Part shown: positions 2,200 through 63,205 of the stretch, piece after piece
Layout: every line of letters starts with the position of its first letter
Numbering within the stretch: the stretch's first letter is position 1
DNA from: a virus
Strand: one strand, 5' to 3'
IMG/VR virus record: IMGVR_UViG_3300045988_101018
Coordinates: 1-64,000 of that record
Length of the DNA stretch: 64,000 nucleotides
The notes under the pieces: generated by a model
Databases searched by the model: none
What the model was told of the DNA's origin: nothing
The model's input: the letters and a program-made list of their open reading frames with translations, nothing else
Translations under genes and position numbers: made by a program

Positions 2200-2402
2200 A
2201 ATGCTTGAAAATAATGTAAAAATCTTCTTTACTTTTAACTGATAATGTTATATGCTATGTATTGAAGTTAGGTTTTTTATTTAAGAAGGTGTATCTGATA
2301 TGAATCTCATCTGCACTCTCATCGTTTGCGGTATCATCTATGCGATCTGCAACTAGTATGTAACGTGGCTTTTGCATTGATAAAGAATCAGGAGGTGGCA
2401 AC

Positions 2403-25200: not shown

Positions 25201-25228
25201 ATGCATTCCTTTAGTGAGGTGTATATAT

Positions 25229-35774: not shown

Positions 35775-35804
35775 ATATAACTTCGAGCGATTGGAGGTGT
35801 GTCG

Positions 35805-36602
35805 GTGAAAGCATATGACTTTGAATACGATGGTGTCAAGCTGAGCGATCTTGGGTTTATTATTTGCAAGTTTGATTCAAGCGATGTCGATACAATAGAT
35901 AATGGTTCACAGATAACTTTTAATACTGTGCCGACCTTGAACGGAATGAAGCACGAATTAACGAGTTCTACATATGAAGATTGCCTTAATACGACTTTTC
36001 AGATATGTAAGAACAAGTGCGATTCCAATCAAACCGATACAGTTTCATTCGATGAGATGCGCAACATCATGTCTTGGTTGAACAGAAAAGGCTTCCATAA
36101 ATTTAGATTACTTGACGATGAATATTCGGGTGTCTATTTTGAAGCTTCATTCAATGTAAGCAGAATTGAAGTTAACGGTATGATTTATGGGTTTGAGCTT
36201 GAGATGTTTACCAATAGACCGTTTGCCATAAGAGAGCCTGTTGTCACTACAATTAAGAATGGTTCAAATAACGGTATAAATGTTATCTACAATGAATCTG
36301 ATGAAGAAGGTTGCATTTATCCCGATATGGAAATCACCATAGAAAAAGACGGTGATTTTATAATGAAGAATTCTTTTAATAATAGAGTGATGAGAATTGC
36401 AAATTGTAAAACAGGAGAAGTTATCAAAGTGTCATATCCAGTGATTAGCTCTTCTTTGGATTCTCATAAGATACAGAACGATTTCAACTGGTCTTTCTTC
36501 AGATTGGAGAATACATTTAGAGACAAAAAGAATAAAATAACGTTGTCTCTACCGTGTGTCGTTAGGATAGCTTATTCGCCTATAGTTAAGGTTACTATAT
36601 AA
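35805..36602 (+). CDS. Distal tail protein (Dit) candidate
   Basis: Immediately downstream of the tape-measure gene. Size and position only. Confidence 0.4.
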   Translation: MKAYDFEYDGVKLSDLGFIICKFDSSDVDTIDNGSQITFNTVPTLNGMKHELTSSTYEDCLNTTFQICKNKCDSNQTDTVSFDEMRNIMSWLNRKGFHKFRLLDDEYSGVYFEASFNVSRIEVNGMIYGFELEMFTNRPFAIREPVVTTIKNGSNNGINVIYNESDEEGCIYPDMEITIEKDGDFIMKNSFNNRVMRIANCKTGEVIKVSYPVISSSLDSHKIQNDFNWSFFRLENTFRDKKNKITLSLPCVVRIAYSPIVKVTI

Positions 36603-43904: not shown

Positions 43905-43981
43905 ATACACTTATATTTATTGAATAATATGAGGGTGATTTGTCATCCTCTTTTTTATTATTGTTTGAAAGGAGGATGACA

Positions 43982-46900
43982 ATGGGTTTATCTTTTAAAG
44001 ACTCGTTAAATAAAGTTAAAGAAAACAATAATGCGAGAATGATAAATAATAACATTTCTCCTATGTCTCTTGATGATGATGTGTCAGCATATGATGACAT
44101 CTCTCTTACATCTCTTGATGATGAATCCGCTGTCGCTGCGGCTTCTGATTCACTAGAAGGTTGGACTCGCAGCAGTAATTACCTATATTACGAAGAGTAT
44201 TCAGATGATAACATTTCAAATGTTGACGATTTGAAGAACGTCTTAATCGACAAGAAGCAAATTAACCTTACACAAGAATCGAATTCTCAGTATATCCCAT
44301 TTAAGATGCCGCGTAGATATGATGGCTTTGACCTTCTCAATACGACCATCATTATTCATTATGTTAATAAAGACGGATATGAAGACCGCAGCAACGTTGT
44401 AAACGTATATTATAATGAAGAGTATATTAAATTTGGTTGGCTTGTCAATAAGAATGCAACAGCCGTTGAAGGCACTCTTGAGTTTGAGATTATTGCGTCT
44501 GGCGTAAACTCAAAGGGCGATGAGTATGTATGGAAGACAAAGCCGAATAATCAGCTAAGCGTTCTTAAGTCTCTTGCTGGCAATGGAGCTATTGAGCCTG
44601 ATAATACATGGATTACAAGCTTTATGACTCAGGTGAATGAGAAGGTTGCGGAAGCCCAGCGTTATGCGCAGGAAGCGAAGACAACTGTTGACGGTATTTC
44701 TGATTACGCCGATAAAGCTGAAGCGTCTGCCAACAAAGCTCAGCAGGTTGTTGATACGGCAAAGACTCAGCTTGAGGGTACAGTCGGCGATGCTGTAAAC
44801 AACAAGGTCGATGCCGCTTTGTCATCTTATTATACCAAGAAGCAGGTTGACGATATCGTTCACAATATTGATATTTCAGACCAGCTTGAAGAAGTGAAGC
44901 AGCAGATTGCCAATCTTGATGGCCTTGCTAAATTCAATGTCACATATGACGGCAGTGAAATGACATTCTATAATGGTGAAGCCGTGATGAAGAAAATTGC
45001 AATCACGAGTAACCCAACCGAGGAATGGACTAATAACTATACTGCTTCTATTGAAGGCAAGATTAATACTGCTAAGTCTGAAATTCAAAGTAGTGCAGAC
45101 GAGAAGTTCGCTACAAAAGCCAGTCTGAATTCTGCAAATGCAAATATCTCAGCTGTTATATCTACCGCGAATGCAAACAAGGAAAATGTGACCAAGCTTG
45201 GTGATAAGGTTGCTAAGTTTGAGGAAACTGTTAACGGTCTTGATACCTCACCTCGTTTGACATATGATGCCACATATGATGAAGAGCAGACTTATACTCT
45301 TTGGGAAATCCAAAATGAGGGTAAAGAGAACGAGAAGAAAGAGCCGAAAGCTCAGTTCAAGATTCAAGGCGGTGGCGGTGGCGGTGGCACCAGCAGTATC
45401 TTGAAGATTACATATATCACCACGACTCCCGTTGTGGCGACACTAGATGATAAGATTATCATTAAATATAATTTTTCAAGAACAGACTCCTCTGGTGACG
45501 TTGGTGGCGATGGTGCTGCAACGTGGAAGGTTGACGGCTCTATTGTTGCTACGAATACCGCTGCATCTGGTGAGAATTCTTTTGATATCACCGACCATAT
45601 TACGGTAGGCACGCACAAGGTTAACCTTAGTATCGTTGACGATGCTGGCAGTCTTGTGACTAAGACTTGGACTGTTCAGAGGGTCGATGTAAGACTTGAA
45701 TCTTCCTTTAATGATACCTTTACCTATCCTATTGGAAAAGTATCTTTCGATTATACTCCATATGGTGCCATTCAAAAGAGAGTACATTTTGTTTTAGACG
45801 GCAAAGAAATCGGAACTGTGGATACCACTGTGTCTGGTGTTCCTTTGGCATATGAACTTCCCGCTCAGACACATGGCGCTCATTTACTCGAAGTGTATAT
45901 GACGGCAGAAATTAACGGTAAGGCAGTTGAATCTAATCATATTATCAAAGATATTATTTGGTATGATTCAGCAAGTGATAAGCCTGTAATTGGATGTGTT
46001 AAGCAGAAGTTTACAGCCAAGCAGTACGATACGGCAAACATTGTGTATACCGTATACGACCCATCCACTGAAGCCCCACAGGTTACGCTTGCTGTTGATG
46101 GAAAGACCGTCTCAACGCTGACAATTGATAGTAATACTCAGACGTGGCAGTTTAAGCCTTCTGATGTTGGCACACATACGCTTACAATTACTTGTCGTGA
46201 TACTGTTAAGACTTTAACGGTAACTGTTGAAAAACTTGATATTGATGTTGAGCCTGTTACTGCTGGTCTTGCATTTGATTTCAATCCCGTTGGTAAGTCT
46301 AATAACGATACCGATAGATTGTGGTCTGATGGCGATGTTGCCATGACCGTATCTGATAATTTCGACTGGGTTAACGGTGGATATCAGATTGATGATAATG
46401 GCGATCAATACTTTGGCGTTAAGGCTGGAACTACGGCAACTATTTCCTATAATCTTTTTGCAGATGATGCCAAGAAGAATGGTAAGGAATTTAAATTGAT
46501 TTTCAAGACAACAAATGTTGCGAAGAGCAATGCTACATTCTTGACTTGTCAGTCTGGTACTACGTCTAATGTCGGCCTTCAGATGAATGTACATGAAGCA
46601 TACATTAAATCAAGTGCGAAGTCTTTGTATATCCCGTATAGCGAGGAAGATGTTATCGAGTGGGAGTTCAATATCAATAAGGATACCGACATTCCCATTG
46701 TCATGTCTTATGAAGATGGTACGCCGTGCCGTCCTATGAGCTATACAGGCGATTATTCATTTACTCAGGACTCTCCCGTACCGATTACCATTGGCTCTCC
46801 TGATTGCGATGTTTTGATTTATCGTATGAAGGCATATAATACAAGCCTTACAAGCTCGGCAATTTTGTCTAATTTTATTGCGGATGCACGTACTGCAACC

Positions 46901-49900
46901 GAGATGATTGCTCGCTATACACGTAACCAGATTTATGATGAGAACAAGCTTTTGACTCCTGAGTCTGTTGCCAATGCTTGTCCTAATATGCGTGTTATCA
47001 AGATTGAAGCTCCGCATTTCACCAATAACAAGAAGGACTTTGTAGCCAATACATCTTTCGAATGCATCTATAAGAATGGTGACGCAGTTCTTGACAACTG
47101 GAAGTTTGAGAATTGCTATCATTCTGGACAAGGCACTACATCAAATGAGTATGGTGCAGCTGGTCGTAACATCGACCTTATTGCTGGTTTTGATGGCAAG
47201 CATCAGGTGAGTAGCAAGATTGAGCTAGACCCAAATTATATTACAAAGCTTACGCTTGGCGATGGTAGTGTTGTTACTGACGGCTCTGGCAAGATTGCCC
47301 TTACTAGAACCTCTGTGCCTAATAACTGGTTCAACGTCAAAGTCAATATCGCAAGCTCCGAGATGGTGAACAACGCATATCTTCAGAAGAGATATAATGA
47401 TTATATCCCATATGCTACTCCTGCAACTCGTAGAGATTCTAAGATTAAGAACGACATGGAGTTCGTTAACTGCGTTGTGTTCATTAAGGAAAGCGACACA
47501 GATTTAACTACACACAGGGAATTCCAAGATACCTCATGGCATTTCTACGCCTTGGGCAACATCGGTGACTCTAAGAAGACAGATGTTACAAGAGCGTATG
47601 ACCCAGACGATATGAAAGAATTCGCTGTTGAGATTAGCGATAATACATTGCCTAATTCCATCTTCCAAACTGGCGTTGCCAATCCTGATGGTTCTATGAA
47701 ATATCCTATCACAAAAGCTGAATGGGTTGCTGGCAATACAGCATATGACGCTTTGTATAATGATTGGGATGGTTCGTTTGAGTTTAGGTACGATTGTTGC
47801 GGAGACTCAAAAGACGGCGAAGCTATTTCAAGCAGCGAGGAAAAGACTAAAATCAGAACGAAGAATAAACAGATTTGGCGAGACTTCTATGAGTTCGTAA
47901 TTACATCTACAGATGAGGAATTCAAGAACAATCTCAAGAATTGGTTTATTGTTGATTCTGCTACATACTTCTATCTATTCACGCTTAGATATACGATGAT
48001 AGACAACAGAAGTAAGAATACCTTCTGGCATTGGGCTAAGCATTATATTACAACGGCAGAAGCGGCAACGCTTGGCGATAAAGCTGCTTATTATACTGTT
48101 GACGATGAAGCCGCTGACATCAATAACGGATATCGTTTTGATCTCTGGGACTATGATAATGATAGCGCTTTGGGCATCAACAACAGCGGTGAGCTTACCA
48201 TGACTTATGGTAAGGAAGATACCGATTATCGCACAGATGGAGATAAGTCTTCTGGCTATATCTTCAATGCTGCTGAGTCCGTATTCTTCTGTCGTGTTCG
48301 TGACCTAATGGGTTCTGAGCTTCAGAAGATGTACGTAAGCCGTGAAAGTAAAAACTGTTGGAGCGCTTCTTCGCTTATCAATCAGTTCGATGAGAAACAG
48401 AATGAATGGTGCGAAGAGCTTTGGCGCGTTGACTATGTGCGTAAATACGAACGTCCTTATAAGGATGGCAACACTCGCTTCCTTGAGCAGATGATGAATG
48501 GCAAGAAGAAGTATCAGCGTAGACAGTTCGAGCGTGACCAAGAGATGTATATGGCAACTAAGTTCATTGGCAATACCGCTACATCTGACCAAATTATGTT
48601 TAGATGTAACACTCCAAAGGATGCCGTTGTCGCACCTAACTATACTCTTCATCTCACTCCATTTGCAGACATGTATCTGTCTGTAATGTTCGGCAATTCC
48701 TCTCCTACTCAGGTAAGGGCAAAAGCTGGCAAACAGTATGATATCACATGCCCATATGATACGATGGACGATACGGCTGTGCTTATCTATGGCGCATCTA
48801 GGATTCAGTCTGTCGGCGATGTGTCTGCTTGCTATATTCATGACAATGACTTCTCTAAGGCTGAAAAGCTAAAGGAGCTTATTATCGGTAACGCAACAGA
48901 AGGTTATTCTAACACCTTCTTGACGAACCTCGTTATCGGCAACAACAAGCTTCTTGAGAAACTTGATATCAGAAACACCCCAAACCTTGTAAGCAGCTTG
49001 GACTTCTCAAAGTGTATGAACCTTGAGGAGCTTTACGCTTCTGGCTCTGGTCTGAAAGGTGTTTTGTTTGCAAGCGGTGGCAGTATCAGGTTGGCTCAGT
49101 TACCTGACACCCTTACATCTATCAACATGAAGAATCTAATGTACCTAACCAATCTTTCTATTGCTGGGTACGATTCAATCTCTACGCTTATCATAGAGAA
49201 TTGTAATACGATAGATGTTAAAGATTTGCTTAATAAAGCTAAGAACGTCAACAGGGTTCGAATTACTGGTATCGATTGGAGTCTCGAAGACACGTCTCTT
49301 CTTGATAGAATCTACAAGATGTCTGGTATCGATAAGAACGGATACAATGTCGATAAGGCTGTGTTGGCTGGCACGGTACACGTTCCTATTGTAAAGCAGC
49401 AGCAGTTGTATGATTATCAGGAAGCATGGCCTGATTTAGAGATTATATTCAATACGATGGTTGAGCAGTTTATTGTCAAGTTCGTAAACTATGATGATGC
49501 TGTTCTTGATACGCAGTATGTCGATAAGGGCGGCAATGCCGTTGACCCGATAACGAGAGTAGACAATCCTATCGACACGCCCACCAAGCCAAGCTCCGTA
49601 AGCACAGACTTTACGTTTGAAGCATGGGATTTGCCGTTGACTGGCATCTTTAGTGATAGAACAATAAAGGCAACGTATAGCGAAACAACGAGACGCTATA
49701 CTATTAAGTATGTTTCCCGTGGTGTAACGCTTCAGGAGTCTACTGGCTTGTATGGTGAGAATGTTGAATACACTGGTGCAATTCCCACTTACACCCTTGA
49801 GGAAAACGCATATAAATATTATATGTTTGATAGGTGGGATAAGAGCGGTTTTATTGACGGAGATAAGACCGTAAATGCAATATTCGATACGTTTACATAT

Positions 49901-51127
49901 ACTCCAACTGCCCTTGCTGGCAAAGAGCTAAAGGATATGCGACCTGTTGAGGTTTATGCCATTACAAAACTAGGTCTTGATAATTCTGGTGCCAACATTC
50001 AGGCTGGTGACGCATATTCGTTTAATATGGGATATGATATTGATTATGATGATATCACATCGAAAACAGTTATCTCTGAGAAAACCGTTTTTGCTGGCAA
50101 GAATTATGTTGATACAGGAATCAAGCTTTTTGATACCGACAAAGATTTCGTATTGGCAATTGATTATAAATTCTTAAGCGGCACATCTGAAAAAAGCGTC
50201 CTTGCCCAATGTTTCCAGTCAAATGGTTCAAACGGATTTAAGTTGTGGTCTAATAGCGGAATCAAGATGAGCTGGGGTACGTCTTCGACTAGTGCTGGTT
50301 CTGTTGGCAGCCGTGACATGGTTGTACTTAGACACAAAAAAGGTGACAATAATATCTATGTATATTATTCTAACCTTAATGGCGGCGAACCCGATATTAT
50401 AAAGCTTGAAAGAACAAAGTCAACAATCATAGATAGCACTCTTGTATTCGGCTGTTCTAAGGCTGACGATGGCGCATATGAGAACTATGCTGTCGGCAAC
50501 GTGTATTGGAGCAAGATTTGGTACGAAGACCTTGGCGATGCAGTCTGCAAGAAGCTCGCTGGTTGGACGCATGAGAACATAGCGCTTGAGGTATGTAGTT
50601 TTAAAAAATACTATCTCAGCAATGAGCCGTCTAAGCGTTGTACGTTCAGCTTGCTTGCAAAGCACCTTCTTGACAGAAAGCGCGTATTTAATGAGAACGG
50701 AAGCAACGCTGGCGGTTGGACTAGCTCTGACCTGAATAGTTTCTTGAATACAAGATTCTATGAAGCATTGCCTGTAAAGATTAAACTTCTCATTAAGCAG
50801 GTCACGGTTAACTCTTCTATCGGCAATGGATCAAAAGAGCTTAGCGCATCTCAATGCTACGTCTCCATTCCTGCCGCTATCGAGCTTAGTAATTCATATG
50901 AAGTCAGCGGAGAGCCATTTGTTAACGAGGGTGAAATCATTTCTTATATGACATCTAATGATGCTAGGAAGCGTGCAGCTGTCGATGGCGATTACACGCC
51001 TTACTGGACTCGCTCACAGAACGTTTCGTATACAAATTATATCTATACGGTAAACGAGCAGGGCGATCTATATGGATTCAATACAGCTGGAACACAAAAC
51101 GGCGTATTGATTGAGATTTCTTTCTAA
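43982..51127 (+). CDS. Giant multi-domain tail fibre or adhesin of 2381 aa, with Ig-like, leucine-rich-repeat and laminin-G/lectin-like regions
   Basis: RBS AAAGGAGGA. Gly-rich linker GGGGGGGT. LRR-like 'LxxLxIxN' run near aa 1650..1800. Jelly-roll-like region near aa 2050..2200. Confidence 0.5.
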   Translation: MGLSFKDSLNKVKENNNARMINNNISPMSLDDDVSAYDDISLTSLDDESAVAAASDSLEGWTRSSNYLYYEEYSDDNISNVDDLKNVLIDKKQINLTQESNSQYIPFKMPRRYDGFDLLNTTIIIHYVNKDGYEDRSNVVNVYYNEEYIKFGWLVNKNATAVEGTLEFEIIASGVNSKGDEYVWKTKPNNQLSVLKSLAGNGAIEPDNTWITSFMTQVNEKVAEAQRYAQEAKTTVDGISDYADKAEASANKAQQVVDTAKTQLEGTVGDAVNNKVDAALSSYYTKKQVDDIVHNIDISDQLEEVKQQIANLDGLAKFNVTYDGSEMTFYNGEAVMKKIAITSNPTEEWTNNYTASIEGKINTAKSEIQSSADEKFATKASLNSANANISAVISTANANKENVTKLGDKVAKFEETVNGLDTSPRLTYDATYDEEQTYTLWEIQNEGKENEKKEPKAQFKIQGGGGGGGTSSILKITYITTTPVVATLDDKIIIKYNFSRTDSSGDVGGDGAATWKVDGSIVATNTAASGENSFDITDHITVGTHKVNLSIVDDAGSLVTKTWTVQRVDVRLESSFNDTFTYPIGKVSFDYTPYGAIQKRVHFVLDGKEIGTVDTTVSGVPLAYELPAQTHGAHLLEVYMTAEINGKAVESNHIIKDIIWYDSASDKPVIGCVKQKFTAKQYDTANIVYTVYDPSTEAPQVTLAVDGKTVSTLTIDSNTQTWQFKPSDVGTHTLTITCRDTVKTLTVTVEKLDIDVEPVTAGLAFDFNPVGKSNNDTDRLWSDGDVAMTVSDNFDWVNGGYQIDDNGDQYFGVKAGTTATISYNLFADDAKKNGKEFKLIFKTTNVAKSNATFLTCQSGTTSNVGLQMNVHEAYIKSSAKSLYIPYSEEDVIEWEFNINKDTDIPIVMSYEDGTPCRPMSYTGDYSFTQDSPVPITIGSPDCDVLIYRMKAYNTSLTSSAILSNFIADARTATEMIARYTRNQIYDENKLLTPESVANACPNMRVIKIEAPHFTNNKKDFVANTSFECIYKNGDAVLDNWKFENCYHSGQGTTSNEYGAAGRNIDLIAGFDGKHQVSSKIELDPNYITKLTLGDGSVVTDGSGKIALTRTSVPNNWFNVKVNIASSEMVNNAYLQKRYNDYIPYATPATRRDSKIKNDMEFVNCVVFIKESDTDLTTHREFQDTSWHFYALGNIGDSKKTDVTRAYDPDDMKEFAVEISDNTLPNSIFQTGVANPDGSMKYPITKAEWVAGNTAYDALYNDWDGSFEFRYDCCGDSKDGEAISSSEEKTKIRTKNKQIWRDFYEFVITSTDEEFKNNLKNWFIVDSATYFYLFTLRYTMIDNRSKNTFWHWAKHYITTAEAATLGDKAAYYTVDDEAADINNGYRFDLWDYDNDSALGINNSGELTMTYGKEDTDYRTDGDKSSGYIFNAAESVFFCRVRDLMGSELQKMYVSRESKNCWSASSLINQFDEKQNEWCEELWRVDYVRKYERPYKDGNTRFLEQMMNGKKKYQRRQFERDQEMYMATKFIGNTATSDQIMFRCNTPKDAVVAPNYTLHLTPFADMYLSVMFGNSSPTQVRAKAGKQYDITCPYDTMDDTAVLIYGASRIQSVGDVSACYIHDNDFSKAEKLKELIIGNATEGYSNTFLTNLVIGNNKLLEKLDIRNTPNLVSSLDFSKCMNLEELYASGSGLKGVLFASGGSIRLAQLPDTLTSINMKNLMYLTNLSIAGYDSISTLIIENCNTIDVKDLLNKAKNVNRVRITGIDWSLEDTSLLDRIYKMSGIDKNGYNVDKAVLAGTVHVPIVKQQQLYDYQEAWPDLEIIFNTMVEQFIVKFVNYDDAVLDTQYVDKGGNAVDPITRVDNPIDTPTKPSSVSTDFTFEAWDLPLTGIFSDRTIKATYSETTRRYTIKYVSRGVTLQESTGLYGENVEYTGAIPTYTLEENAYKYYMFDRWDKSGFIDGDKTVNAIFDTFTYTPTALAGKELKDMRPVEVYAITKLGLDNSGANIQAGDAYSFNMGYDIDYDDITSKTVISEKTVFAGKNYVDTGIKLFDTDKDFVLAIDYKFLSGTSEKSVLAQCFQSNGSNGFKLWSNSGIKMSWGTSSTSAGSVGSRDMVVLRHKKGDNNIYVYYSNLNGGEPDIIKLERTKSTIIDSTLVFGCSKADDGAYENYAVGNVYWSKIWYEDLGDAVCKKLAGWTHENIALEVCSFKKYYLSNEPSKRCTFSLLAKHLLDRKRVFNENGSNAGGWTSSDLNSFLNTRFYEALPVKIKLLIKQVTVNSSIGNGSKELSASQCYVSIPAAIELSNSYEVSGEPFVNEGEIISYMTSNDARKRAAVDGDYTPYWTRSQNVSYTNYIYTVNEQGDLYGFNTAGTQNGVLIEISF

Positions 51128-54111: not shown

Positions 54112-54172
54112 TTCTCAACGTCTCTGTTTTTTATTAATAGATATCTAATGGAAAATAAAGACGTTGAGAAAT
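54112..54172. promoter_or_regulatory. 11-bp inverted repeat TCTCAACGTCT / AGACGTTGAGA flanking an AT-rich, promoter-like stretch
   Basis: Read directly, just upstream of the gene at 54197. Confidence 0.35.
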
Positions 54173-54196
54173 CAACATATTGAAAGGAGTGGTCGC

Positions 54197-55279
54197 ATGG
54201 CAGAAACAAAGTTTCTTGACAGCATCGGCTTAACTTATCTACTTGAGAAGATAAACGCGAAGTTTTCAAAGATAGGTCATAAACATACCAAGGCGGACAT
54301 TACTGACTTCGCACATGACCACGATGGGAGATATTATACCGAAACCGAAATCGACACAAAGGTTTCCGCGCTAAACTCTGCGATTTCTGGTAAGGCCAAT
54401 TCTTCTCATAAACACGCTGCTGCTGATATTACGTCTGTGAATGCTTCTGCCATTACAGGTAGAATTGCTGCTGCTAATTTACCTAGTTACGTAGATGATG
54501 TGCTTGAGTATGCTGGAACATCTAAATTCCCTTCAACTGGTGAAGCTGGTAAGATTTATACTGATACAACGACAAACAAGATTTACCGCTGGGGCGGATC
54601 GTCTTATGTAGTTATTTCAGACACTATTGCCTTGGGTGAAACCAACTCTACCGCCTACCGTGGCGATAGAGGTAAAACTGCTTATAATCATTCGCAGATT
54701 ACAAGCGGAAACCCACATAAGGTAACTAAGTCCGATGTTGGTCTTGGCAGTGTTGACAATACTTCTGACGCAAATAAAAGTGTTAAGTACGCCAAAAGTG
54801 CAACGGCTAACAACCCGATAAAAACAACAGGTACGGGCGCTGCATATGCGGCAATTGTTGATGGCATTACGGCTCTTACTATTGGTGTTAAATTTACTAT
54901 GGTGCCACATGTTACTAGTACCACTAGGGCACCAACTCTTAATGTGAACAGTCTTGGTGCTAAAAGCATTAGAATGAGACTAACAAGCTCTACTACGGCT
55001 ACAATTCAGCTTACAAGTGCTAGTTTCTTAACCGCCAATAAGCCCGTAAATGTTATGTATGACGGGACTTATTGGGTAATTGATGACTTTGCACAGCCTG
55101 ACGTAAACAGTCTATATGGCACTGTGCCGATAGAAAAGGTTCAAGCTCATATTGCAAACACTACAATTCACATCACTGCCGCTGAGCGTGCTAAGTGGAA
55201 TGCCAAAGCAGATATTACCATTGGCACTGCTGAACCAACTTCAAGTACGTCTGGAATTTTTTATATTCAGACAAATTAA
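54197..55279 (+). CDS. Tail-fibre protein
   Basis: N-terminus 'KFLDSIGLTYLLEKINAKF' is paralogous to that of 52599. Repeated 'HKH..AADIT' units. Confidence 0.45.
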   Translation: MAETKFLDSIGLTYLLEKINAKFSKIGHKHTKADITDFAHDHDGRYYTETEIDTKVSALNSAISGKANSSHKHAAADITSVNASAITGRIAAANLPSYVDDVLEYAGTSKFPSTGEAGKIYTDTTTNKIYRWGGSSYVVISDTIALGETNSTAYRGDRGKTAYNHSQITSGNPHKVTKSDVGLGSVDNTSDANKSVKYAKSATANNPIKTTGTGAAYAAIVDGITALTIGVKFTMVPHVTSTTRAPTLNVNSLGAKSIRMRLTSSTTATIQLTSASFLTANKPVNVMYDGTYWVIDDFAQPDVNSLYGTVPIEKVQAHIANTTIHITAAERAKWNAKADITIGTAEPTSSTSGIFYIQTN

Positions 55280-56288: not shown

Positions 56289-57248
56289 TTGGCGAGTAAT
56301 AGCAATACTAAAAATAGCGGCAAGGGCGGCGTTACAACTGCGGTCAGCGCATGGTATGATAGCGAAACTGGGAATACAGTAAGACTTTGCATAAGTACGA
56401 GCGTTAAGGGAAGCTCTAATGGCCCGTGGGGCTATGGCGTAGTCGGGCAGTCTGGCTACGAAGGGAATGGAGCAAACTGGAAAGAGGTCGGTCGCGGAGT
56501 TTTTAACTATGCCAACACTGTCGTTAATGGTACAGCATATTTTACAGTCGGAAAAACCCATAGCGGATGGACTGCGAGCTGTTGGGCAAAGTCGTGGGGC
56601 GAAGCGGCTGGTGGATATGGCGCATACATTGCCAGCGATGATGTTCGCTGTAACGTATGGATCCCAGCAACGTCTAGATACACTCTTTCCTATAATGCCA
56701 ACGGTGGCTCGGGCGCTCCTTCGAGCCAAACAAAATGGCATGGCGAAACATTAACGCTCTCCTCTGCTAAGCCAACAAGAGACGGATATGAATTTGCTGG
56801 TTGGGGTACGTCTGCCACTGATACTGGCGTTAAATATGCTGCTGGCGGACAATATACAGGAAATGCAAGCATCACACTGTATGCTATCTGGACTAACGCT
56901 GCAAAGATGACTCTTGCATATAATGCCAACGGTGGCTCGGGCGCTCCTTCGAGCCAAACACATTTGATAAATACAACCTCTAAAATATCTGGTGCTAAGC
57001 CCACTAGAGACAAGTATGTGTTTTTAGGGTGGTCTACGAGCAGTTCTGCCACAAGTGCAACATATATCGCAGACGGGCAGTACACAAACAACAATTTTAC
57101 CAATGGCGCAACCGTCACGTTGTACGCTGTGTGGCTGAAGAAGAGTCCGAGTATATATATAAATTCATCAGAACATAGTTTCAAATCGGTTTGGGTAAAT
57201 GTGCCTTCTGGCAAGAGCCTTAAATCAATCTGGTTCAAGACTGGTTAG
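56289..57248 (+). CDS. Protein with two Listeria-Bacteroides-type repeats (InlB B-repeat-like)
   Basis: Two 70-aa units 'YNANGGSGAPSSQT...AKPTRDGYEFAGWGTS...YAIW'. TTG start. 42-bp identical DNA repeats at 56691..56732 and 56919..56960. Confidence 0.55.
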   Translation: MASNSNTKNSGKGGVTTAVSAWYDSETGNTVRLCISTSVKGSSNGPWGYGVVGQSGYEGNGANWKEVGRGVFNYANTVVNGTAYFTVGKTHSGWTASCWAKSWGEAAGGYGAYIASDDVRCNVWIPATSRYTLSYNANGGSGAPSSQTKWHGETLTLSSAKPTRDGYEFAGWGTSATDTGVKYAAGGQYTGNASITLYAIWTNAAKMTLAYNANGGSGAPSSQTHLINTTSKISGAKPTRDKYVFLGWSTSSSATSATYIADGQYTNNNFTNGATVTLYAVWLKKSPSIYINSSEHSFKSVWVNVPSGKSLKSIWFKTG

Positions 57249-57267
57249 TTGATGGGAGGTAATTGAG

Positions 57268-57627
57268 TTGGCTGACGAAGTTGAATTAAGTGAAGTTGAT
57301 TACAAGCTTAAATATACAGGCGAGGAAGTCGATAGTCTCCTTGCGTTTATAAAAGATTTTAAAAATATCTACAACAAGATGAAGCGCGTTCAGGCTGGAT
57401 GTGAAGCTATCTCTACGACTACGGCTGGTGCAGATGTGATTAAGGTTATAGATTTCAGTGTTGCCTTTAACGGTGTGCCGAATGTTATGCTCATACCTAC
57501 TTTTCTAAATGATAAAACGGCTAAGGCAAAAGTTCTTAATATCACGTCTTCTAATTTCAAGGTTCAGGTAGTAGGAAATGATAACGATGCCACAACCAAC
57601 TTGTATTGGATAGCTACTGAACAGTAA
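57268..57627 (+). CDS. Hypothetical protein of 119 aa
   Basis: RBS GGGAGGT with a TTG start. Confidence 0.3.
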   Translation: MADEVELSEVDYKLKYTGEEVDSLLAFIKDFKNIYNKMKRVQAGCEAISTTTAGADVIKVIDFSVAFNGVPNVMLIPTFLNDKTAKAKVLNITSSNFKVQVVGNDNDATTNLYWIATEQ

Positions 57628-57674
57628 ATCTTGTTTGATTATATATCAAAGTTTGAATGAAAGGAAGTAAAAAT

Positions 57675-58118
57675 ATGAGTTGGGTTAATCTTAATGATGT
57701 TTATGTAAATCAGACTGGCGGAACTATTGCTGGCGATCTATCTGTAAACGGCGCTTTGACGGTAAATGATGGCAAGGGAACGAACACCACATACAATGTT
57801 GCCAATGAAATTACAACGTTGCGGGATTCCGTATCCCAATGTAAACCGCAATATAAAATTTATGCTGGGTCGAGGGTAATAAACATCACACAATCTTGGG
57901 GTACGCTATTTACAAAAGACGAATTTATATCCTCTTTTGGACGCGAATTTAATAATTCAAGAGACAGCATATCAGTTATGAATGGAGATGCGAAAGCCAA
58001 CAATATTACCGTTTTTGGTGTTTCGTATTATCCACAAGACGGCAAGTTGCTTGTTGCATTATCGGCGAACGGCGGCGGTGCTTTTAGGATCAATTATATC
58101 GTAGTTCTTGCTGAGTAG
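57675..58118 (+). CDS. Shufflon-variable tail-fibre-tip protein, the expressed copy. Constant N-terminal part ends ...LRDSVS at 57837, followed by variable cassette 'e'.
   Basis: Contains the crossover repeat ATTCCGTATCCC in frame at 57826..57837. N-terminal 'QTGGTIAGDLSVNG' resembles the conserved tail-fibre 'TGGTMTG.L' motif. Confidence 0.6.
   Translation: MSWVNLNDVYVNQTGGTIAGDLSVNGALTVNDGKGTNTTYNVANEITTLRDSVSQCKPQYKIYAGSRVINITQSWGTLFTKDEFISSFGREFNNSRDSISVMNGDAKANNITVFGVSYYPQDGKLLVALSANGGGAFRINYIVVLAE
57826..57837 (+). repeat. Shufflon crossover site in the expressed gene (ATTCCGTATCCC on the + strand)
   Basis: Exact 12-mer within the coding sequence, encoding S-V-S. Confidence 0.8.
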
Positions 58119-58152
58119 ACGTTATTGGCATACGCATATAAGAAATCATGCG

Positions 58153-58472
58153 CTAGTTGATATACCATGAACAAATACCCCTGTTAATAGCACCAGATAT
58201 CGAAGCAGCAACTTGAAACCCAATTGCTCCGTTTGGATGGACATAGCCATATGCGCATACGTTGAGTATGTAGCCATTGGCATTTGTCACACATGATGGC
58301 GAATAAATTGTATGGTCTGGTCGAAGATTTTCTGGAATGACATGTTCTATTCCCCAATACTCATTTGTTGATTGAGAAACAGTCCATACGAGTATACACG
58401 TGTATCCAACACGCCGAATATGAACGTATGAGGAACTACCCGGCGCTCCGTATAGCACAAGCGTATCGTCTT
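58153..58472 (-). other. Silent C-terminal cassette m0 (HSVSQDDTLVLYGAPG...SWYIN*)
   Basis: Reads leftwards from site A in the same frame as the crossover repeat. Confidence 0.6.
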
Positions 58473-58508
58473 GGGATACGGAATGCTAAGTATGGGTTTC
58501 CGTATCCC
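58473..58508. repeat. Site pair A: GGGATACGGAATgcta (58473..), 13-nt gap, then TTCCGTATCCC (58498..58508), facing opposite directions
   Basis: Read directly. Confidence 0.8.
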
Positions 58509-58846
58509 TGACAAAAGACACATGCAAAGGAGCCAACGGCTGGGTTGTACAAACTGGCGCAATTACACGTACAGAAAATTGTGTAACCATGTGGGTAGAT
58601 GTTGTTGCTGGAAATAGCGCGAATAAGAATGTAAATACAACGTTTGCGACAATGCCGTCTGCTTTCGCGCCTAGCACATATAATATTGAACTTCCAGTAT
58701 TAGGGTTCACTACAACGTCTTATCCAATTAGCTTTTGGATAATAATCACTACAAGTGGAGAAATCAAAATTAAGCAATATGTACTACCGTCTAACACAGT
58801 TCTAGGCCAAATTAAATGTTGTTGTACGTATTTAAAAATTTAATAG
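58499..58846 (+). other. Silent cassette p0 (SVSLTKDTCKGANGW...CCCTYLKI*)
   Basis: Reads rightwards from the rightward-facing half of site A. Ends in tandem stops TAA TAG. Confidence 0.55.
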
Positions 58847-58859
58847 CATTCCGTATCTC
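58847..58859 (+). repeat. Degenerate site A2 (CATTCCGTATCTC, one mismatch), in frame directly after the stops of p0
   Basis: Read directly. Confidence 0.6.
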
Positions 58860-59221
58860 AGATTAAATTATTGTGGAGCGGGTCTGTGTACGGCGGCGGT
58901 TCATTTGTCGTACCAGAGCTAAAAGAATATACATTTGTAGAAGTGGTTACTTCAAATGCTGATGAAAATCATTGGGGCGTATTATGTTTTAATGACATGA
59001 ATGCATTAAAATCTACCGATGATGCATATGGCATGTGGGTATACGCAGATATACACGCTGGCTTGGATTACATAGTATCAATAAAATCAAAATTGGAAAT
59101 ACAGAAAGACTTAAAGACTGTGAAATTCACAGCTGGATATGCATTTAACGTAATGAAAGAAAACACCGTTATTACTTCAACGCAAAAACTTCGTATCGTT
59201 GCTGTGTATGGCGTTAGATAG
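58850..59221 (+). other. Silent cassette p0b (HSVSQIKLLWSGSVYGGG...VYGVR*)
   Basis: In frame from site A2. Matches the ORF-track entry at 58871..59221. Confidence 0.5.
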
Positions 59222-59227
59222 GCTGTA

Positions 59228-59565
59228 TTATAGATACAACATTCCAGATATCTTACGCACTCCATATGCATACATGCCGTTATAGTATGATGCATTTAAA
59301 GTCAGTTTTCCATCTGGGTCAAGCTCAACAAATACTGAAAATTGCGCAGAAAAATCTGCAACTCCTACAAAATATACATTTGTTTTTGGTCTATATTTTG
59401 ATGGCAATGATATGGACACTGACTTATATCCATTTCCACTTGCAGACATAAAGCCAGAAACCCTGTCACATATAACCTTTATCGCGTTTTGACTTGGAAT
59501 ATACACGACATTTATATCAAATGTTGCACCAACAAGGTCAACGCTATAGTCGCCAATTTTCTCTT
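59228..59565 (-). other. Silent cassette m1 (HSVSQEKIGDYSVDL...GMLYL*)
   Basis: Reads leftwards from site B. Confidence 0.6.
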
Positions 59566-59581
59566 GGGATACGGAATGCTA
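59566..59581 (-). repeat. Site B, GGGATACGGAATgcta. Its 'cta' supplies the TAG stop of cassette m2
   Basis: Read directly. Confidence 0.8.
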
Positions 59582-59889
59582 TTTTAACTTTCCTATAACA
59601 GTTTCCTGTACGTACATTCCTACATTAGACATAGATGTTGCAGATGAAAGATAGCATCTAACGTCTGTTACATTCTTAATTTCGACATAATGTCCAATCC
59701 ATAATCCATTTCCAGTGACGGGATTAACATCTGCATATAAGATAGAGTCGTATATATCAGGGGCGTTAAACGCATAAGAACAAAAGTACAATGAACCAAA
59801 TAGAGCTGTTGCAGAAATGGTTTTATGAACTTTTCTTGTTGACAGAGCATAGCCTATTCCAAAATTAAAAATAGTCCAATCTCCATTTT
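59579..59889 (-). other. Silent cassette m2 (YSVSQNGDWTIFNFG...IGKLK*)
   Basis: Reads leftwards from site C. Confidence 0.6.
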
Positions 59890-59905
59890 GGGATACGGAA
59901 TACTA
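59890..59905 (-). repeat. Site C, GGGATACGGAATacta
   Basis: Read directly. Confidence 0.8.
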
Positions 59906-59909
59906 GGTT

Positions 59910-60149
59910 ATTAAACTTCAATATAATAAACGATAACATTTATTTTTCTATTTGAATATTTCCCTGCGCTGCCGTCCCATGCCATAAGACGAACTGTTCT
60001 ACCCTGTTGTGCGTCAGTTCCCGTATGAAACGCATATCTCGCATCGTACATCCCACCAATTCCTATTGGAATCTGCCTTGCGTTAAGTCCCGTTTCGAAA
60101 TATCCATTAGGGTCTGTAGTTGTATCTATTTGTTTTGTTTTTATAATAT
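59910..60149 (-). other. Silent cassette m3 (NSVSHIIKTKQIDTT...YYIEV*), about 80 aa
   Basis: Reads leftwards from site D. No internal Met, so it is absent from the ORF track. Confidence 0.45.
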
Positions 60150-60186
60150 GGGATACGGAATTCCCATGTTTAGTATTCCGTATCCC
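60150..60186. repeat. Site pair D: GGGATACGGAAT (60150..60161), the spacer tcccatgtttagt, then ATTCCGTATCCC (60175..60186)
   Basis: Read directly. Confidence 0.8.
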
Positions 60187-60530
60187 AAATCAGTAATAGA
60201 GTATTGCTTTGGAGTGGAACGGCTGGCAAAGGTGTGAAAATTACGATTGACAGCGACTATTCATTTAAAGAATTCAAATCATTTTATTGCCTTACAAGTA
60301 TCGATAAAACAATCGGATTGCCGCTTGTAAGAAACTCTGGAATACAACAAGACCAGCATTTACACGGCATTACTGGATGGGATGATGGTAATACAACATA
60401 TACGCTTGTTGGGCTAATTAGAATAAATACAGAGACAACTGCGACCATTACGTCTATATCAAAACACGATATAAGTGGCAATGGTGGAATTGCTGGCAGC
60501 TTACTTAAACTATGGGGATGTTACTAATCG
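60177..60530 (+). other. Silent cassette p1 (SVSQISNRVLLWSGTAGKG...LWGCY*)
   Basis: Reads rightwards from the rightward-facing half of site D. Convergent with m4. Confidence 0.6.
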
Positions 60531-60865
60531 TTACTTCCACATGCCTTTGACGTTATATTCTATAAATGCCACTGTAGTAGTATTGTTATATTTTATATCT
60601 TGGTTTAACACATATACTCCAGTGTCTACTAGCCCAATAGAAGCTCCTGTACCAGATAATACGTAAACGCCCTTTTGTCCAGAGCTATATATTGCAGAAG
60701 CGCCCTTATACAATAAACTAGTTAAAGGAAATGGAAAATCAACAGCGGGTGCAGTAACACTACCAATCCCTTTTATTTCTTTTCCTCCCCAAAATTCTGC
60801 AAGACCGCTATTCCATTTGCGATAAAACCAGATTCCAGATGTTCCCTGTGCGACAATATAGTCGT
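60531..60865 (-). other. Silent cassette m4 (HSVSHDYIVAQGTSG...KGMWK*)
   Basis: Reads leftwards from site E. Confidence 0.6.
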
Positions 60866-60881
60866 GGGATACGGAATGCTA
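60866..60881 (-). repeat. Site E, GGGATACGGAATgcta. Its 'cta' is the TAG stop of m5
   Basis: Read directly. Confidence 0.8.
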
Positions 60882-61132
60882 TAACGGTATAGCAATCCAA
60901 TTTATAGTACATTGTATGTGTTGATATTCTTGGTGACTATTCCAAACGTCCATAGTAAACCCAGTTGATGTTTTGTTATACACCATTTCCGTAACAGAAG
61001 GCCATCCCCATGTTTCAATTTTTGGAAACTGAAGAGATGTGATAACAACATAATCTGTTTCGATTGGTGTATTAAATTTAACCTGAACAACGTTATCATT
61101 TATGTTTGTTGTCATGGTAACAACACCTCTTT
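60879..61132 (-). other. Silent cassette m5 (YSVSQRGVVTMTTNIND...IAIPL*)
   Basis: Reads leftwards from site F. Confidence 0.6.
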
Positions 61133-61169
61133 GGGATACGGAATACCCATGTTTAGTATTCCGTATCCC
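61133..61169. repeat. Site pair F: GGGATACGGAAT (61133..61144), the spacer acccatgtttagt, then ATTCCGTATCCC (61158..61169)
   Basis: Near-identical to pair D, including the spacer. Confidence 0.8.
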
Positions 61170-61504
61170 AGAGCGAATGGAAAGTCCTCAAGGGCAACAT
61201 CGGCTCCAACCATCTGGCGTACAAAATCTGCAATGGCATCTGCTATCTGAGCATCGATTGCGGCGGAGACTGGAGCATCAAGGCCAACGCGAAGTCCACT
61301 GTTGACATCATTACCATGCCAGACGAAGCATTGCCATCCACGTGGATTGTTTCAGCTGCTTGTTACCCAAAGGGCGGCAATTCAGACTTCGTTTGCGGTG
61401 TGACATTAAACAGGAAGACTAAGAAGCTATCCGTATGCAACTACTCGAACACGGCAACCAACTACTATTCCGTCACTTTCTGCTATCCAGTCAAAAATTA
61501 GCAG
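61160..61504 (+). other. Silent cassette p2 (SVSQSEWKVLKGNIG...CYPVKN*)
   Basis: Reads rightwards from the rightward-facing half of site F. Confidence 0.6.
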
Positions 61505-61779
61505 TTATATGACATTCTTTTTGTATAGAATTACGAATGTAATTTTAAAATCATGCCATGTGCCTTTGTTTGTTACCTCGTTATTTTGAATGCTTGCATA
61601 TGCAGTGTCGTTATCGCGCAGACCAAATTGCGTGATAATACATGAACCTGTGTGGTTTGACTTCACCGTGGTAAGGCATACAGGCGTATAGCCATCGTAT
61701 TTCACGCTGGTGTCAAAGTCGGCAACCGCGCCATACCTTAATGATTTGGCGGCAGACGTGAAGCTCTTTGTCGTGTACT
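61505..61779 (-). other. Silent cassette m6 (HSVSQYTTKSFTSAAK...KKNVI*)
   Basis: Reads leftwards from site G. Confidence 0.6.
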
Positions 61780-61795
61780 GGGATACGGAATGCTA
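61780..61795 (-). repeat. Site G, GGGATACGGAATgcta
   Basis: Read directly. Confidence 0.8.
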
Positions 61796-61797
61796 TG

Positions 61798-62090
61798 TTA
61801 AAAAATAACAAAGGTTGCCCTTACGCTTCTGTTGCCAGACTGTAAATATAAATATCCATTTTGATAATAGGCAGTTGCGTGTAGGCTTATGTCAGAAACA
61901 TAATAGCAATCTACACAATCGTCAGGCCGTGTATTATTTTTAATAAAATGAGATATGGGAAACACTGTAGAACATAGCGGTCTATTATTGTAAACGCATA
62001 TTAAACAACCCATTTTTGTTGTGGGTAAATTGACTTTAAATGATTCGTATGAAGTAGAACCGCTTGTTTTTGCCACCTCTACAGGAGCTT
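61798..62090 (-). other. Silent cassette m7 (DSVSQAPVEVAKTSGS...FVIF*)
   Basis: Reads leftwards from site H. Confidence 0.6.
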
Positions 62091-62108
62091 GGGATACGGA
62101 ATCCCCAG
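62091..62108 (-). repeat. Site H, GGGATACGGAATccccag, 6 nt from the recombinase stop codon
   Basis: Read directly. Confidence 0.8.
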
Positions 62109-63005
62109 TTAGCTTATAGCCCTTATTTTAGACTTTCTAGCTTTGTCGAATATCAGCTTCTCAACAGCCGCCTGAGCTTCTTGGCAGATTGTTTTACGAG
62201 GAACGATATAGTGATTATATGCTGTGCTAATCTCTGTATGACCAAGCATCATGGCAACGGTTTCGATGCCAACTCCTGCTTCAATTGCAAGTGTAGCCCA
62301 TGTATGACGCATGTTAGTCATAGATACATATGGTACACCCATCTTCTTACACTGTGACTTGATAGCACGAGCTGCTTTATCGGGAGATACATCACCGATA
62401 AGAAGCCCATGTCCTTTAATCTGCTTTAGGCGCTGACGTGCAAACTTAGGTAGATAGCAAGACCTAGTAGACTTTTCTGTCTTAGTTTTTACTGTGATGA
62501 TTTGACCGTTCACATATTGGCGCGACTTGCTAATACGCACCTCGCCAGTCTTAAGATTGATATCAGACCATTCGAGAGCGCAAGCTTCGCCACGGCGCAA
62601 ACCAAGAGTTACAGCACAGATAGTTACGGCTTCAGCCCAATGACCCCACATGCCGCGAAGCATCTCTGATACCTCTTGTGCGTCTAAAACATCTGGGCGA
62701 TAAGGCTTGGGGTGGTTTACTTCTATGTATGCGGTTGGATCGATAATATGTAGGCGCTTCTTGCGAATCCACCAACGGATGATTTGGCGAATACATTTAA
62801 ACGCTTTCTCTCCTGCGCCAGCTTTTTCAAATGAGTCTACCCACTCCTGCAAATCATCAGGGCAGATATCTTCAATCTCACATTCGCCCCATCGCGGAAG
62901 TACATGAAGACGCATTGATGAGTCGTATCCAGCTATGGTGGATGCCGCCATCTTCTGTGTTTTCTCGGGTAGATAATGCTGTTCATAGATGTCGATAAGT
63001 TTCAT
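62109..63005 (-). CDS. Shufflon-associated tyrosine recombinase (Rci/XerC-like)
   Basis: 'LRRGEACAL' (box I Arg), 'MRHTWAT' (HxxR), 'LGHTEISTAYNHY' (H...Y). RBS AAAGGA. Lies at the end of the repeat array. Confidence 0.7.
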   Translation of the reverse strand: MKLIDIYEQHYLPEKTQKMAASTIAGYDSSMRLHVLPRWGECEIEDICPDDLQEWVDSFEKAGAGEKAFKCIRQIIRWWIRKKRLHIIDPTAYIEVNHPKPYRPDVLDAQEVSEMLRGMWGHWAEAVTICAVTLGLRRGEACALEWSDINLKTGEVRISKSRQYVNGQIITVKTKTEKSTRSCYLPKFARQRLKQIKGHGLLIGDVSPDKAARAIKSQCKKMGVPYVSMTNMRHTWATLAIEAGVGIETVAMMLGHTEISTAYNHYIVPRKTICQEAQAAVEKLIFDKARKSKIRAIS

Positions 63006-63023
63006 TTTTTAAATCCTTTCATT

Positions 63024-63082
63024 GAAAAAATCCCACGCAATTTAACTCGAAATGAGTATATAACTTGCGTGGGATTTTTTCA
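63024..63082. promoter_or_regulatory. Perfect 18-bp inverted repeat TGAAAAAATCCCACGCAA / TTGCGTGGGATTTTTTCA with a 23-nt loop, in the divergent promoter region between the recombinase gene and the downstream gene
   Basis: Read directly. Confidence 0.5.
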
Positions 63083-63205
63083 ATGGTGCATATAAATTTA
63101 TTTATATATAAATTAAAAGTTCTACAATTTTGAATATTAGAAAACACATTTTATGTTACAATATTAACCATATTTATAAACTCTAATGACCAAGGAGGTA
63201 TGTCT

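Follow-up and report, generated by a model that had tools for sequence, protein, structure and literature searches.

Previous studies described the Rin shufflon in the Bifidobacterium breve and Bifidobacterium longum prophages Bb423phi1, Bl157phi1 and Bl30698phi1, in which rin, a tyrosine invertase without an arm-binding domain, and the constant part Rc flank five dissimilar variable (Rv) cassettes, each preceded by the asymmetric 11-bp site rix, TTCCCTAACCC, and in which sequencing reads showed inversion (Mavrich et al. 2018, PMC6109161). A Rin system with the rix site ttccgtat was subsequently reported in Eggerthella lenta clade-1 prophages, with H-type lectin domains in its variable cassettes (2022, PMC8778435). 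Here we analyzed positions 57675-63005 of a 64-kb stretch of viral DNA (IMG/VR record IMGVR_UViG_3300045988_101018, positions 1 to 64,000, referred to as the window), which contain an expressed tail gene, an array of silent cassettes and a tyrosine recombinase gene. We consider it very probable that this locus is a Rin-type multiple-inversion shufflon in a human-gut siphophage of about 125.7 kb.

The locus and the Rin systems agree in several respects. An invertase without an arm-binding domain, distinct from the integrase, flanks the array, and its lineage is common to Rin loci, as placed via Bifidobacterium phage PMBT6 and loci of Actinomycetota. A short asymmetric repeat stands before each cassette and in the expressed gene, and is absent elsewhere in the window; the gene ending the tail module joins a constant N-terminus to dissimilar C-terminal cassettes; related genomes differ by site-bounded inversions, and alternative full-length fusions exist. 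Moreover, the core of the repeat, TTCCGTAT(CCC), is the same as the rix published for E. lenta, and TTCCGTATCCC agrees with the B. breve rix at 9/11 positions, its first 8 nt being ttccgtat of E. lenta.

Recombination sites, cassettes and recombinase

The motif ATTCCGTATCCC, with at most one mismatch, was present 13 times in 57826-62102 and nowhere in the rest of the window (both strands scanned for GGGATACGGAAT/ATTCCGTATCCC; expected 0.18; 0/100 shuffles reached 13). Eleven of the 13 copies were exact, while those at 58497 (TTTCCGTATCCC) and 58848 (ATTCCGTATCTC) had one mismatch each; five copies were on the plus strand (57826, 58497, 58848, 60175, 61158), and the remaining eight on the minus strand. 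The reading frame across the site was xAT-TCC-GTA-TCC-C, and in 13/13 cases it opened an uninterrupted frame of 83-124 codons; since at least 83 open codons followed only 4.9% of random positions in the region, 13/13 by chance would have a probability of about 0.049^13. Together the 13 frames spanned 4185 of the 4279 nt (97.8%) of 57825-62103. Their peptides start with D/H/Y/N-S-V-S-Q/H, with the exception of cassette C (V-S-V-S-L). A TAG was in frame immediately 5' of the motif codon in 9/12 silent copies, the nearest in-frame stop of cassettes C, G and J, the second members of head-to-head site pairs, was 3-10 codons upstream, and a start codon or ribosome-binding sequence was found at the motif in none of the 12 silent copies.

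Cassette A (57825..58118, plus strand, 97 codons, rix 57826-57837) is currently expressed. Four silent cassettes are co-oriented with the expression site: C (58496..58843, 115 codons, rix 58497-58508), D (58847..59221, 124 codons, rix 58848-58859), H (60174..60527, 117 codons, rix 60175-60186) and K (61157..61501, 114 codons, rix 61158-61169). The other eight are on the minus strand and inverted relative to it: B (58153..58485, 110 codons, rix 58473-58484), E (59228..59578, 116 codons, rix 59566-59577), F (59579..59902, 107 codons, rix 59890-59901), G (59911..60162, 83 codons, rix 60150-60161), I (60531..60878, 115 codons, rix 60866-60877), J (60879..61145, 88 codons, rix 61133-61144), L (61505..61792, 95 codons, rix 61780-61791) and M (61798..62103, 101 codons, rix 62091-62102). 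The sites of G and H are head-to-head with a 13-nt gap, and those of J and K are also head-to-head. Pairwise, the 13 cassettes were 15-30% identical, with no significant BLAST match among them.

The logo of 129 distinct sites of relatives read T-R-G-n-A-TTCCGTATCCC-A, an asymmetric site of about 16 nt. Both the expression site (full context GGGATTCCGTATCCCAA) and the site adjacent to rin had the form GGGA-TTCCGTA-TCCC, with inverted arms of 4-5 bp and an asymmetric centre, and the context of the cassette M site, GGGGATTCCGTATCCCAA, repeated the expression site perfectly over 17 nt in inverted orientation. The left arm was degenerate in the silent sites (TAGCA), and its TAG is also the in-frame stop. 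Position 5 of the site was G, A, C or T between systems and uniform inside each locus (e.g. TTCCATATCCC in 10/10 sites of L014 and of L017, two of the relatives), a pattern that would be expected of a base inside the strand-exchange overlap. Within the cassette families of relatives, the bases right of the site were constant, the four left bases varied (AGCA, AGTA, GGAA, GGGT) and were always GGGA in expressed cassettes, and a C-to-A variant at site position 11 travelled together with the cassette. Because the right bases and the position-11 variant stay with the cassette and the left bases change, we placed the crossover point inside TTCCGTATCC.

The gene rin (62109..63005, minus strand, co-directional with cassette M) encodes a Xer-like, rin-type tyrosine invertase of 298 aa, without an arm-binding domain, and 6 nt separate its stop codon from the last rix site. 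The product matched only Pfam Phage_integrase (2.2e-16) and a SAM-like core-binding domain (Phage_int_SAM_3), residues R137, K175, R233, H256 and Y266 were invariant in an alignment of five family members (A1), and its closest solved structures and curated relatives were Xer-type recombinases. In the phage collection, the best matches were Siphoviridae sp. ctl617 (38%, 8e-53) and PMBT6 (34.5%, 9e-50), followed by a match with E of about 3e-19 and other listed matches of 1e-7 to 2e-17. A scan of 185,579 species genomes gave closest bacterial relatives that were all Actinomycetota, with identities of 72% in Collinsella, 71% in Enteroscipio, 54% in Eggerthellaceae, 45% in Gordonibacter, 41% in Parvibacter and 36-38% in Bifidobacterium; the 90%-identity cluster of the product contained 849 sequences. 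We infer that rin is the catalyst of the inversions; the alternative, that this adjacent recombinase is the phage integrase, was rejected because a separate 398-aa integrase exists. Directly upstream of the rin start codon, an inverted repeat (63020-63085), with a 16-nt loop between 25-nt arms of 96% complementarity, overlaps the strongest promoter-like match of the region (63083-63055, TTGAAA-17-TATACT). It could be a rin operator or a (bidirectional) terminator, and its membership in the system is uncertain.

The combination of recombinase and site extended to other genomes. TTCC[G/C/T]TA[T/A]CCC was found from just after the recombinase stop, and again inside or beside the tail gene, in 10 of the 12 closest bacterial-genome loci (L031-L042) and in ctl617 and PMBT6; of the other two loci, L033 was cut within the recombinase gene and L042 was without a site match. 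The actinobacterial loci with the site had a G+C content (GC) of 56-68% and 2-7 sites where the contig end did not cut the locus. Starting directly after the recombinase stop, TAGC(A/T)TTCCGTAACCC was present 7 times in ctl617 and 3 times in PMBT6, and both phages had the expressed junction GGGATTCCGTAACCC within the tail gene. The constant parts of the target genes were non-homologous across these loci while the junction always encoded D/N-S-(V/L/I)-(S/T); therefore, we regard enzyme and site as a portable module.

The expressed gene (57675..58118, plus strand) encodes a putative receptor-binding tail protein of 147 aa, composed of the constant stem Rc (codons 1-50, 57675-57824) and cassette A, and the site follows codon 50 (...EITTLR|DSVSQ...). 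An AGGAAG ribosome-binding sequence precedes its ATG, and an alternative ATG is at 57657. No family was found for the protein in Pfam, PHROGs or NCBIfam. The AlphaFold model (47 homologues) had a mean predicted local distance difference test score (pLDDT) of 80, with a helix at residues 42-53, a beta-sandwich head at 60-146 (block-mean pLDDT 79-97, mostly >90) and an N-terminus of low confidence in the monomer. Since this helix and this beta-sandwich flank the site in the model, rix sits at the hinge between stem and head. A model of the H-type fusion P0070 (9-sequence alignment) reached a pLDDT of 43 and was discarded. The 147-aa protein would be a trimeric receptor binder whose heads alter the host range. 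In a promoter and terminator scan of the locus, promoter-like matches were fewer than in shuffled sequence, and no terminator was found after the expressed gene. Directly upstream of the shufflon gene is a gene for a 119-aa protein with an H-type lectin domain (57268-57627, Pfam 4.2e-05), which was kept at the same place in every relative for which a gene table was returned.

Most of this architecture had been proposed in an initial annotation of the window, made from the sequence alone, and its structural reading, in which a neighbouring recombinase would connect a single expression site with 12 in-frame, promoterless C-terminal cassettes by inversion, was supported by our analysis. The copy at 57826 indeed lies in an intact gene, site scanning gave the same eight minus and four plus orientations for the silent copies, and the Pfam match agrees with a tyrosine recombinase ending 6 nt from the last site. 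The count and range of the 12-mer held as well, although two copies are inexact; an open frame in phase does begin at every copy, but the range of lengths given for them (about 80 to 118 codons) had to be revised; and the peptide start (H/Y/N/D)-S-V-S-Q(H) applies to 12 cassettes, C departing from it. The annotation had named repeats unrelated to the reading frames as a refutation, which the 13/13 in-frame copies contradict, and it had proposed two further analyses: the alignment of the cassettes showed them to be mutually unrelated, and the structure prediction was successful for the stem with cassette A but not for the H-type fusion.

Rearrangement among relatives and its explanation

We compared the locus with 19 IMG/VR relatives (recombinase identity 72-99%, largest genome 133 kb) and with ENA and Logan contigs, which possessed 3-13 cassettes each; the related gut phages were about 125-130 kb. 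When the 133 cassettes of the 19 IMG/VR contigs and the window (13 in the window) were grouped, 66 families were obtained at >=60% identity. The same cassette families were present in another order and orientation, H> I< in the window, L004 and L009 versus I> H< in L007 and L010, and L014 and L017 differed by an inversion starting at the expression site. D-type cassettes were in the expressed position in L004, L088 and L093, H-type cassettes in L009, L026 and L085-L087, the cassette I type in L081 and the cassette L type in L024 and L025. Cassette J was only silent in relatives (J98 in L026, L086), and K had a silent homologue in L024 (95%).

The product of the expressed gene, used as a protein query, gave 412 matches, 120 of which were covered by the fusion analysis. 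Among these, a 55-residue N-terminus, 100% identical, was joined to homologues (80-97%) of B (P0090, 97%), C (P0112, 96%), D (P0068, 93%), E (P0136), F (P0105, 80%), G (P0114, 93%), H (P0070, 95%), I (P0103, 97%), L (P0083, 97%) and M (P0078, 89%), so that fused homologues exist for 10/12 silent cassettes. An exact look-up of the predicted fusion proteins, which covered the 10 silent cassettes other than C and K, found only Rc+E (166 aa, P0136). Its contig (L077, 1649 bp) followed the window at 56678-57839 (95.2%) and then, on the other strand, at 59577-59226 (99.7%), the segments overlapping within the rix site. In addition, 16 further metagenome contigs had an identical 31-nt junction with at least 10 different heads.

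Contigs ended 0-4 nt past a site in at least nine independent assemblies. As a repeat of 12-17 nt should not break assemblies with k of about 79-141 (taken from record names such as k79, k119 and k141), this suggests that isomers coexisted in the samples concerned. Contigs of metagenomes and genome bins often stopped exactly at a rix site (L074, L075, L031, L038, L039, L040, L041, L019, L012 and L082). Short shufflon fragments can also enter bacterial genome bins: 3-5-kb contigs of Collinsella bins consisted almost entirely of the invertase and one site.

Cassettes and flanks also differed in their conservation. Inside one relative, the nucleotide identity of cassettes to the window was 68-99%, and that of the flanks 95-96% (L026, L028, L010). 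Together with L077, which is 95% identical upstream of the site versus 99.7% downstream, this indicates that heads move between lineages on their own. Two contigs of about 124 kb, L026 and L027 (ENA ERZ28620592, ERZ27278184), had rin split into frames of 184 aa and 54 aa (L026 11032-11928, L027 7422-8318) with all 12 cassettes intact; the invertase there is probably a pseudogene, and these phages may be naturally locked shufflons expressing head H. A different arrangement was observed in L021 (reverse complement 8656, 9242) and L090, which carry two tandem, slightly diverged stems, each with a different head and with junction motifs 586 nt apart, and in which two receptor-binding genes would be expressed together.

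Taken as evidence for activity, these observations are strong although indirect. On this basis we propose that the product of rin would act on 13 asymmetric sites of about 16 nt, one in the expressed gene and 12 before heads without promoter or start codon. The protein would consist of a stem, a 50-residue N-terminal anchor with a short helix, and a head, a beta-sandwich of about 95 residues, with the site between them. If the expression site recombined with any of the inverted sites, the DNA separating the two would be flipped and the stem joined in frame, via D-S-V-S, to a new head; eight heads would be reachable by a single inversion, while C, D, H and K would first need an internal flip. 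One genome would thus give 13 alternative receptor-binding tips, and the population of a lysate or of lysogens would hedge across hosts or variable surface structures.

Several points weigh against the Rin-type shufflon proposed here. Inversion in this particular strain is deduced from the comparison of contigs between strains, and since these strains are about 95-97% identical in the flanks, part of the rearrangement could be homologous recombination between phages. No fused forms of cassettes J and K were found among the 120 of 412 matches. The mismatches at sites C and D may reduce the activity of these sites. The lineage link runs through PMBT6 and the loci of Actinomycetota and not through the Rin sequence of Bb423phi1 itself. 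Furthermore, the proposal gives no account of how the five sites in direct repeat escape deletion of the DNA between them, a question that the Rin authors also asked (PMC6109161).

Other explanations were weighed. The locus could be a frozen or relic shufflon, with past inversions but now no meaningful switching in this strain and only head A made, and the evidence for inversion does lie outside within-sample reads, two sites are mismatched, and L026 and L027, with 12 cassettes and a split recombinase, show that frozen states occur in the lineage. We nevertheless consider a relic unlikely, because rin is intact here with all five conserved residues (R, K, R, H, Y) in place, 11/13 sites match perfectly, and none of the 12 silent frames, 83-124 codons long, is interrupted, which is hard to account for without continued selection through expression; the contigs ending at sites in many assemblies likewise point to current heterogeneity. 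Alternatively, head diversity could arise by homologous or illegitimate recombination of co-infecting phages, the motif being a homology patch and the recombinase serving integration or dimer resolution. The spread of cassette identity against uniform flanks fits such exchange, and from it we concluded that the cassettes have separate histories and move between phages. As the origin of the whole arrangement, however, this is very unlikely: the phage has its own 398-aa integrase, 12 nt of homology is little for RecA-type exchange, the site is always a few bases from the recombinase stop in relatives that are 35-72% identical and of 38-68% GC, site position 5 co-varies with the recombinase lineage, and the rearrangements between relatives are inversions bounded by sites.

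It has also to be considered that the cassettes are independent small genes, paralogous lectins or chaperones with a common N-terminal peptide or regulatory motif, as some of them are called as separate small genes by automatic callers. We give this almost no weight, since the silent cassettes have no start or ribosome-binding sequence at the motif and 9/12 have TAG before its codon, the motif is conserved at the nucleotide level including synonymous positions between cassettes only 15-30% identical, the same nucleotides lie mid-gene in the expressed gene, and natural proteins fuse an identical stem to cassettes exactly at the motif. Beyond the inversion shufflon, it is a tentative and rather doubtful idea that the rix sites are also an integron-like platform for head trading between co-infecting phages of this gut lineage. 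Such trading would explain why about 20 genomes with 3-13 cassettes contain 66 or more head families and why the cassettes are 68-99% identical against flanks of about 95%, as well as the presence of a Rin module of 56-68% GC actinobacteria in a 38% GC phage of probably another host phylum.

The carrier phage

The window was identical to the ENA contig ERZ27272354:k119_171382 (125,707 bp), and a sister contig with an identical recombinase was labelled human gut metagenome. The structural module of the window is all on one strand, with the shufflon gene as its last gene. It comprises a terminase (9925-11490), a portal (11528-13066), what is probably a capsid protein (15374-16396), a giant frame of 3383 aa at the place of the tape-measure gene (25214-35365), which would imply a very long tail, and Dit (35799-36602), followed by a 1123-aa minor tail protein, a 2395-aa protein and several tail-fibre-like genes. 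The portal is closest to those of large siphophages (SPbeta-like, Bacillus, Lactococcus, C. difficile), at about 30% identity. The 2395-aa protein is encoded by a giant frame (43940-51127), with DUF6273 in the relative L026. When the locus and 24 kb of the structural module were used as nucleotide queries against the phage collection, neither gave a match. The window has a GC of about 38%, and together with the portal resembling those of Bacillota siphophages this suggests a host that is probably of another phylum than actinobacteria.

The separate 398-aa tyrosine integrase (L022 4141-5337) lies on the part of the source contig that the window does not cover, some 4.7 kb past rin, and the phage is probably temperate. 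Beyond this integrase, the source contig carries dUTPase, radical-SAM and HNH genes. The tail-fibre-like genes that precede the shufflon by a few kb (54164-55279 and neighbours) were swapped for genes of 272-777 aa in phages about 95% identical (L024, L026, L028 and L029, at 2000-4900); this is a second mosaic host-range zone, independent of the rix sites.

Comparison with known diversification systems

The R64 (IncI1) Rci/sfx/pilV system likewise has a tyrosine recombinase, asymmetric sites conserved one-sidedly, multiple inversions, and a constant N-terminus with alternative C-termini of a surface adhesin, but its target is the pilus adhesin pilV versus a phage tail protein here. The R64 shufflon has 7 C-termini, and sfx consists of a conserved 7-bp spacer and a 12-bp arm, with the core GTGCCAATCCGGT; its logic of one conserved arm and centre and one variable arm resembles that of rix here, which is resemblance and not homology. 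A scan of the window for this core at <=2 mismatches found no match. For the Rci lineage, tblastn of the rin product against 72,556 plasmids gave best matches of about 25% (Klebsiella and Bacillus integrases), its leading plasmid organisms were Bacillus, Ligilactobacillus and Thermus, with no E. coli or Salmonella and thus not IncI hosts, and no Rci model of NCBIfam matched it. Membership in R64/Rci was therefore rejected, on the absence of an sfx-like motif, the plasmid matches of about 25% and the phage tail gene as target.

Mu Gin, P1 Cin and p15B Min also are phage-encoded inversion systems of the C-terminal part of a tail fibre that determines host range, Min with multiple segments. They rely on serine invertases, 26-bp sites and an enhancer that depends on Fis, whereas the enzyme here is a tyrosine recombinase with an asymmetric site of about 16 nt; a serine-invertase switch was rejected, as the sole recombinase at the locus, to which the scan for serine recombinases was limited, is of the tyrosine type. 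The vsa locus of Mycoplasma pulmonis, with the tyrosine recombinase HvsR, one expression site and many silent bodies each preceded by a site, works by inversion only, has about 7-11 genes and targets a bacterial surface lipoprotein, not on a phage. Its number of cassettes is comparable, and its site and enzyme are not known to be related to those here. A diversity-generating retroelement, which would have a reverse transcriptase and a template/variable repeat pair of at least about 100 nt, was rejected, as there were no long repeats beyond site contexts of about 17-41 nt in 57000-63200; no reverse-transcriptase-sized frame was found in the locus. A shufflon of a tail fibre flanked by a recombinase is also known from BV01-like gut phages of Phocaeicola vulgatus, with 3 cassettes, 6 variants and 1.7 kb, all configurations of which were detected in reads (PMC13596623, 2026 preprint); its motif, TGGGAGAACT, is unrelated, and its host is a member of the Bacteroidota.

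The closest system is thus Rin, and the initial annotation's view that an architecture like that of Mu Gin/P1 Cin or R64, combined with tyrosine-recombinase chemistry, was undescribed for a phage receptor gene was mistaken: Rin had been published (PMC6109161, PMC8778435), with the site and recombinase lineage in common. Its related claim, that no phage receptor shufflon of this size was described, holds insofar as a literature search, mostly without papers of subscription journals, found no account of this phage lineage or of a larger phage shufflon; the locus is not unique in its size, however, as relatives of the window also carry 12-13 cassettes. The system is compact and natural, and suited for studying how one phage covers many receptors; further, its 50-aa stem, defined in-frame junction D-S-V-S and interchangeable heads of about 100 aa offer a scaffold for host-range engineering. 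It also gives a warning for annotation, since assemblies break at the sites and callers name the invertase "integrase" and the heads "hypothetical proteins".

As here, the Rv cassettes of Rin in Bifidobacterium and E. lenta are mutually dissimilar (about 6-30% identical) and about 95-100 aa long, and the integrase is separate. Bb423phi1 has 5 heads and the actinobacterial loci examined have 2-7, compared with 13 here; the constant stem of Rin is 168 aa, whereas that of the present phage is 50 aa and non-homologous; the Rin carriers are high-GC actinobacterial prophages of about 35-40 kb, and the carrier here is a 38% GC siphophage of about 125 kb with a Bacillota-like portal. In Bb423phi1 inversion within the population was shown by sequencing reads, while here inverted arrangements were seen between assembled contigs. 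What is new is therefore the number of 13 cassettes (versus 5 published for Rin), the low-GC 125-kb siphophage, the 50-aa stem and the pool of at least 66 head families, and knowledge of the mechanism is unchanged by this locus. The Rin family is widened from small actinobacterial prophages with at most 5 published heads to a lineage of human-gut phages of about 125-130 kb that is very common, as judged from the 849-sequence recombinase cluster, and whose genomes carry as many as 13 heads each and share a large, mosaic pool of them. Rather than a new kind of system, the locus is a new member of Rin, the largest so far, in an unexpected carrier.

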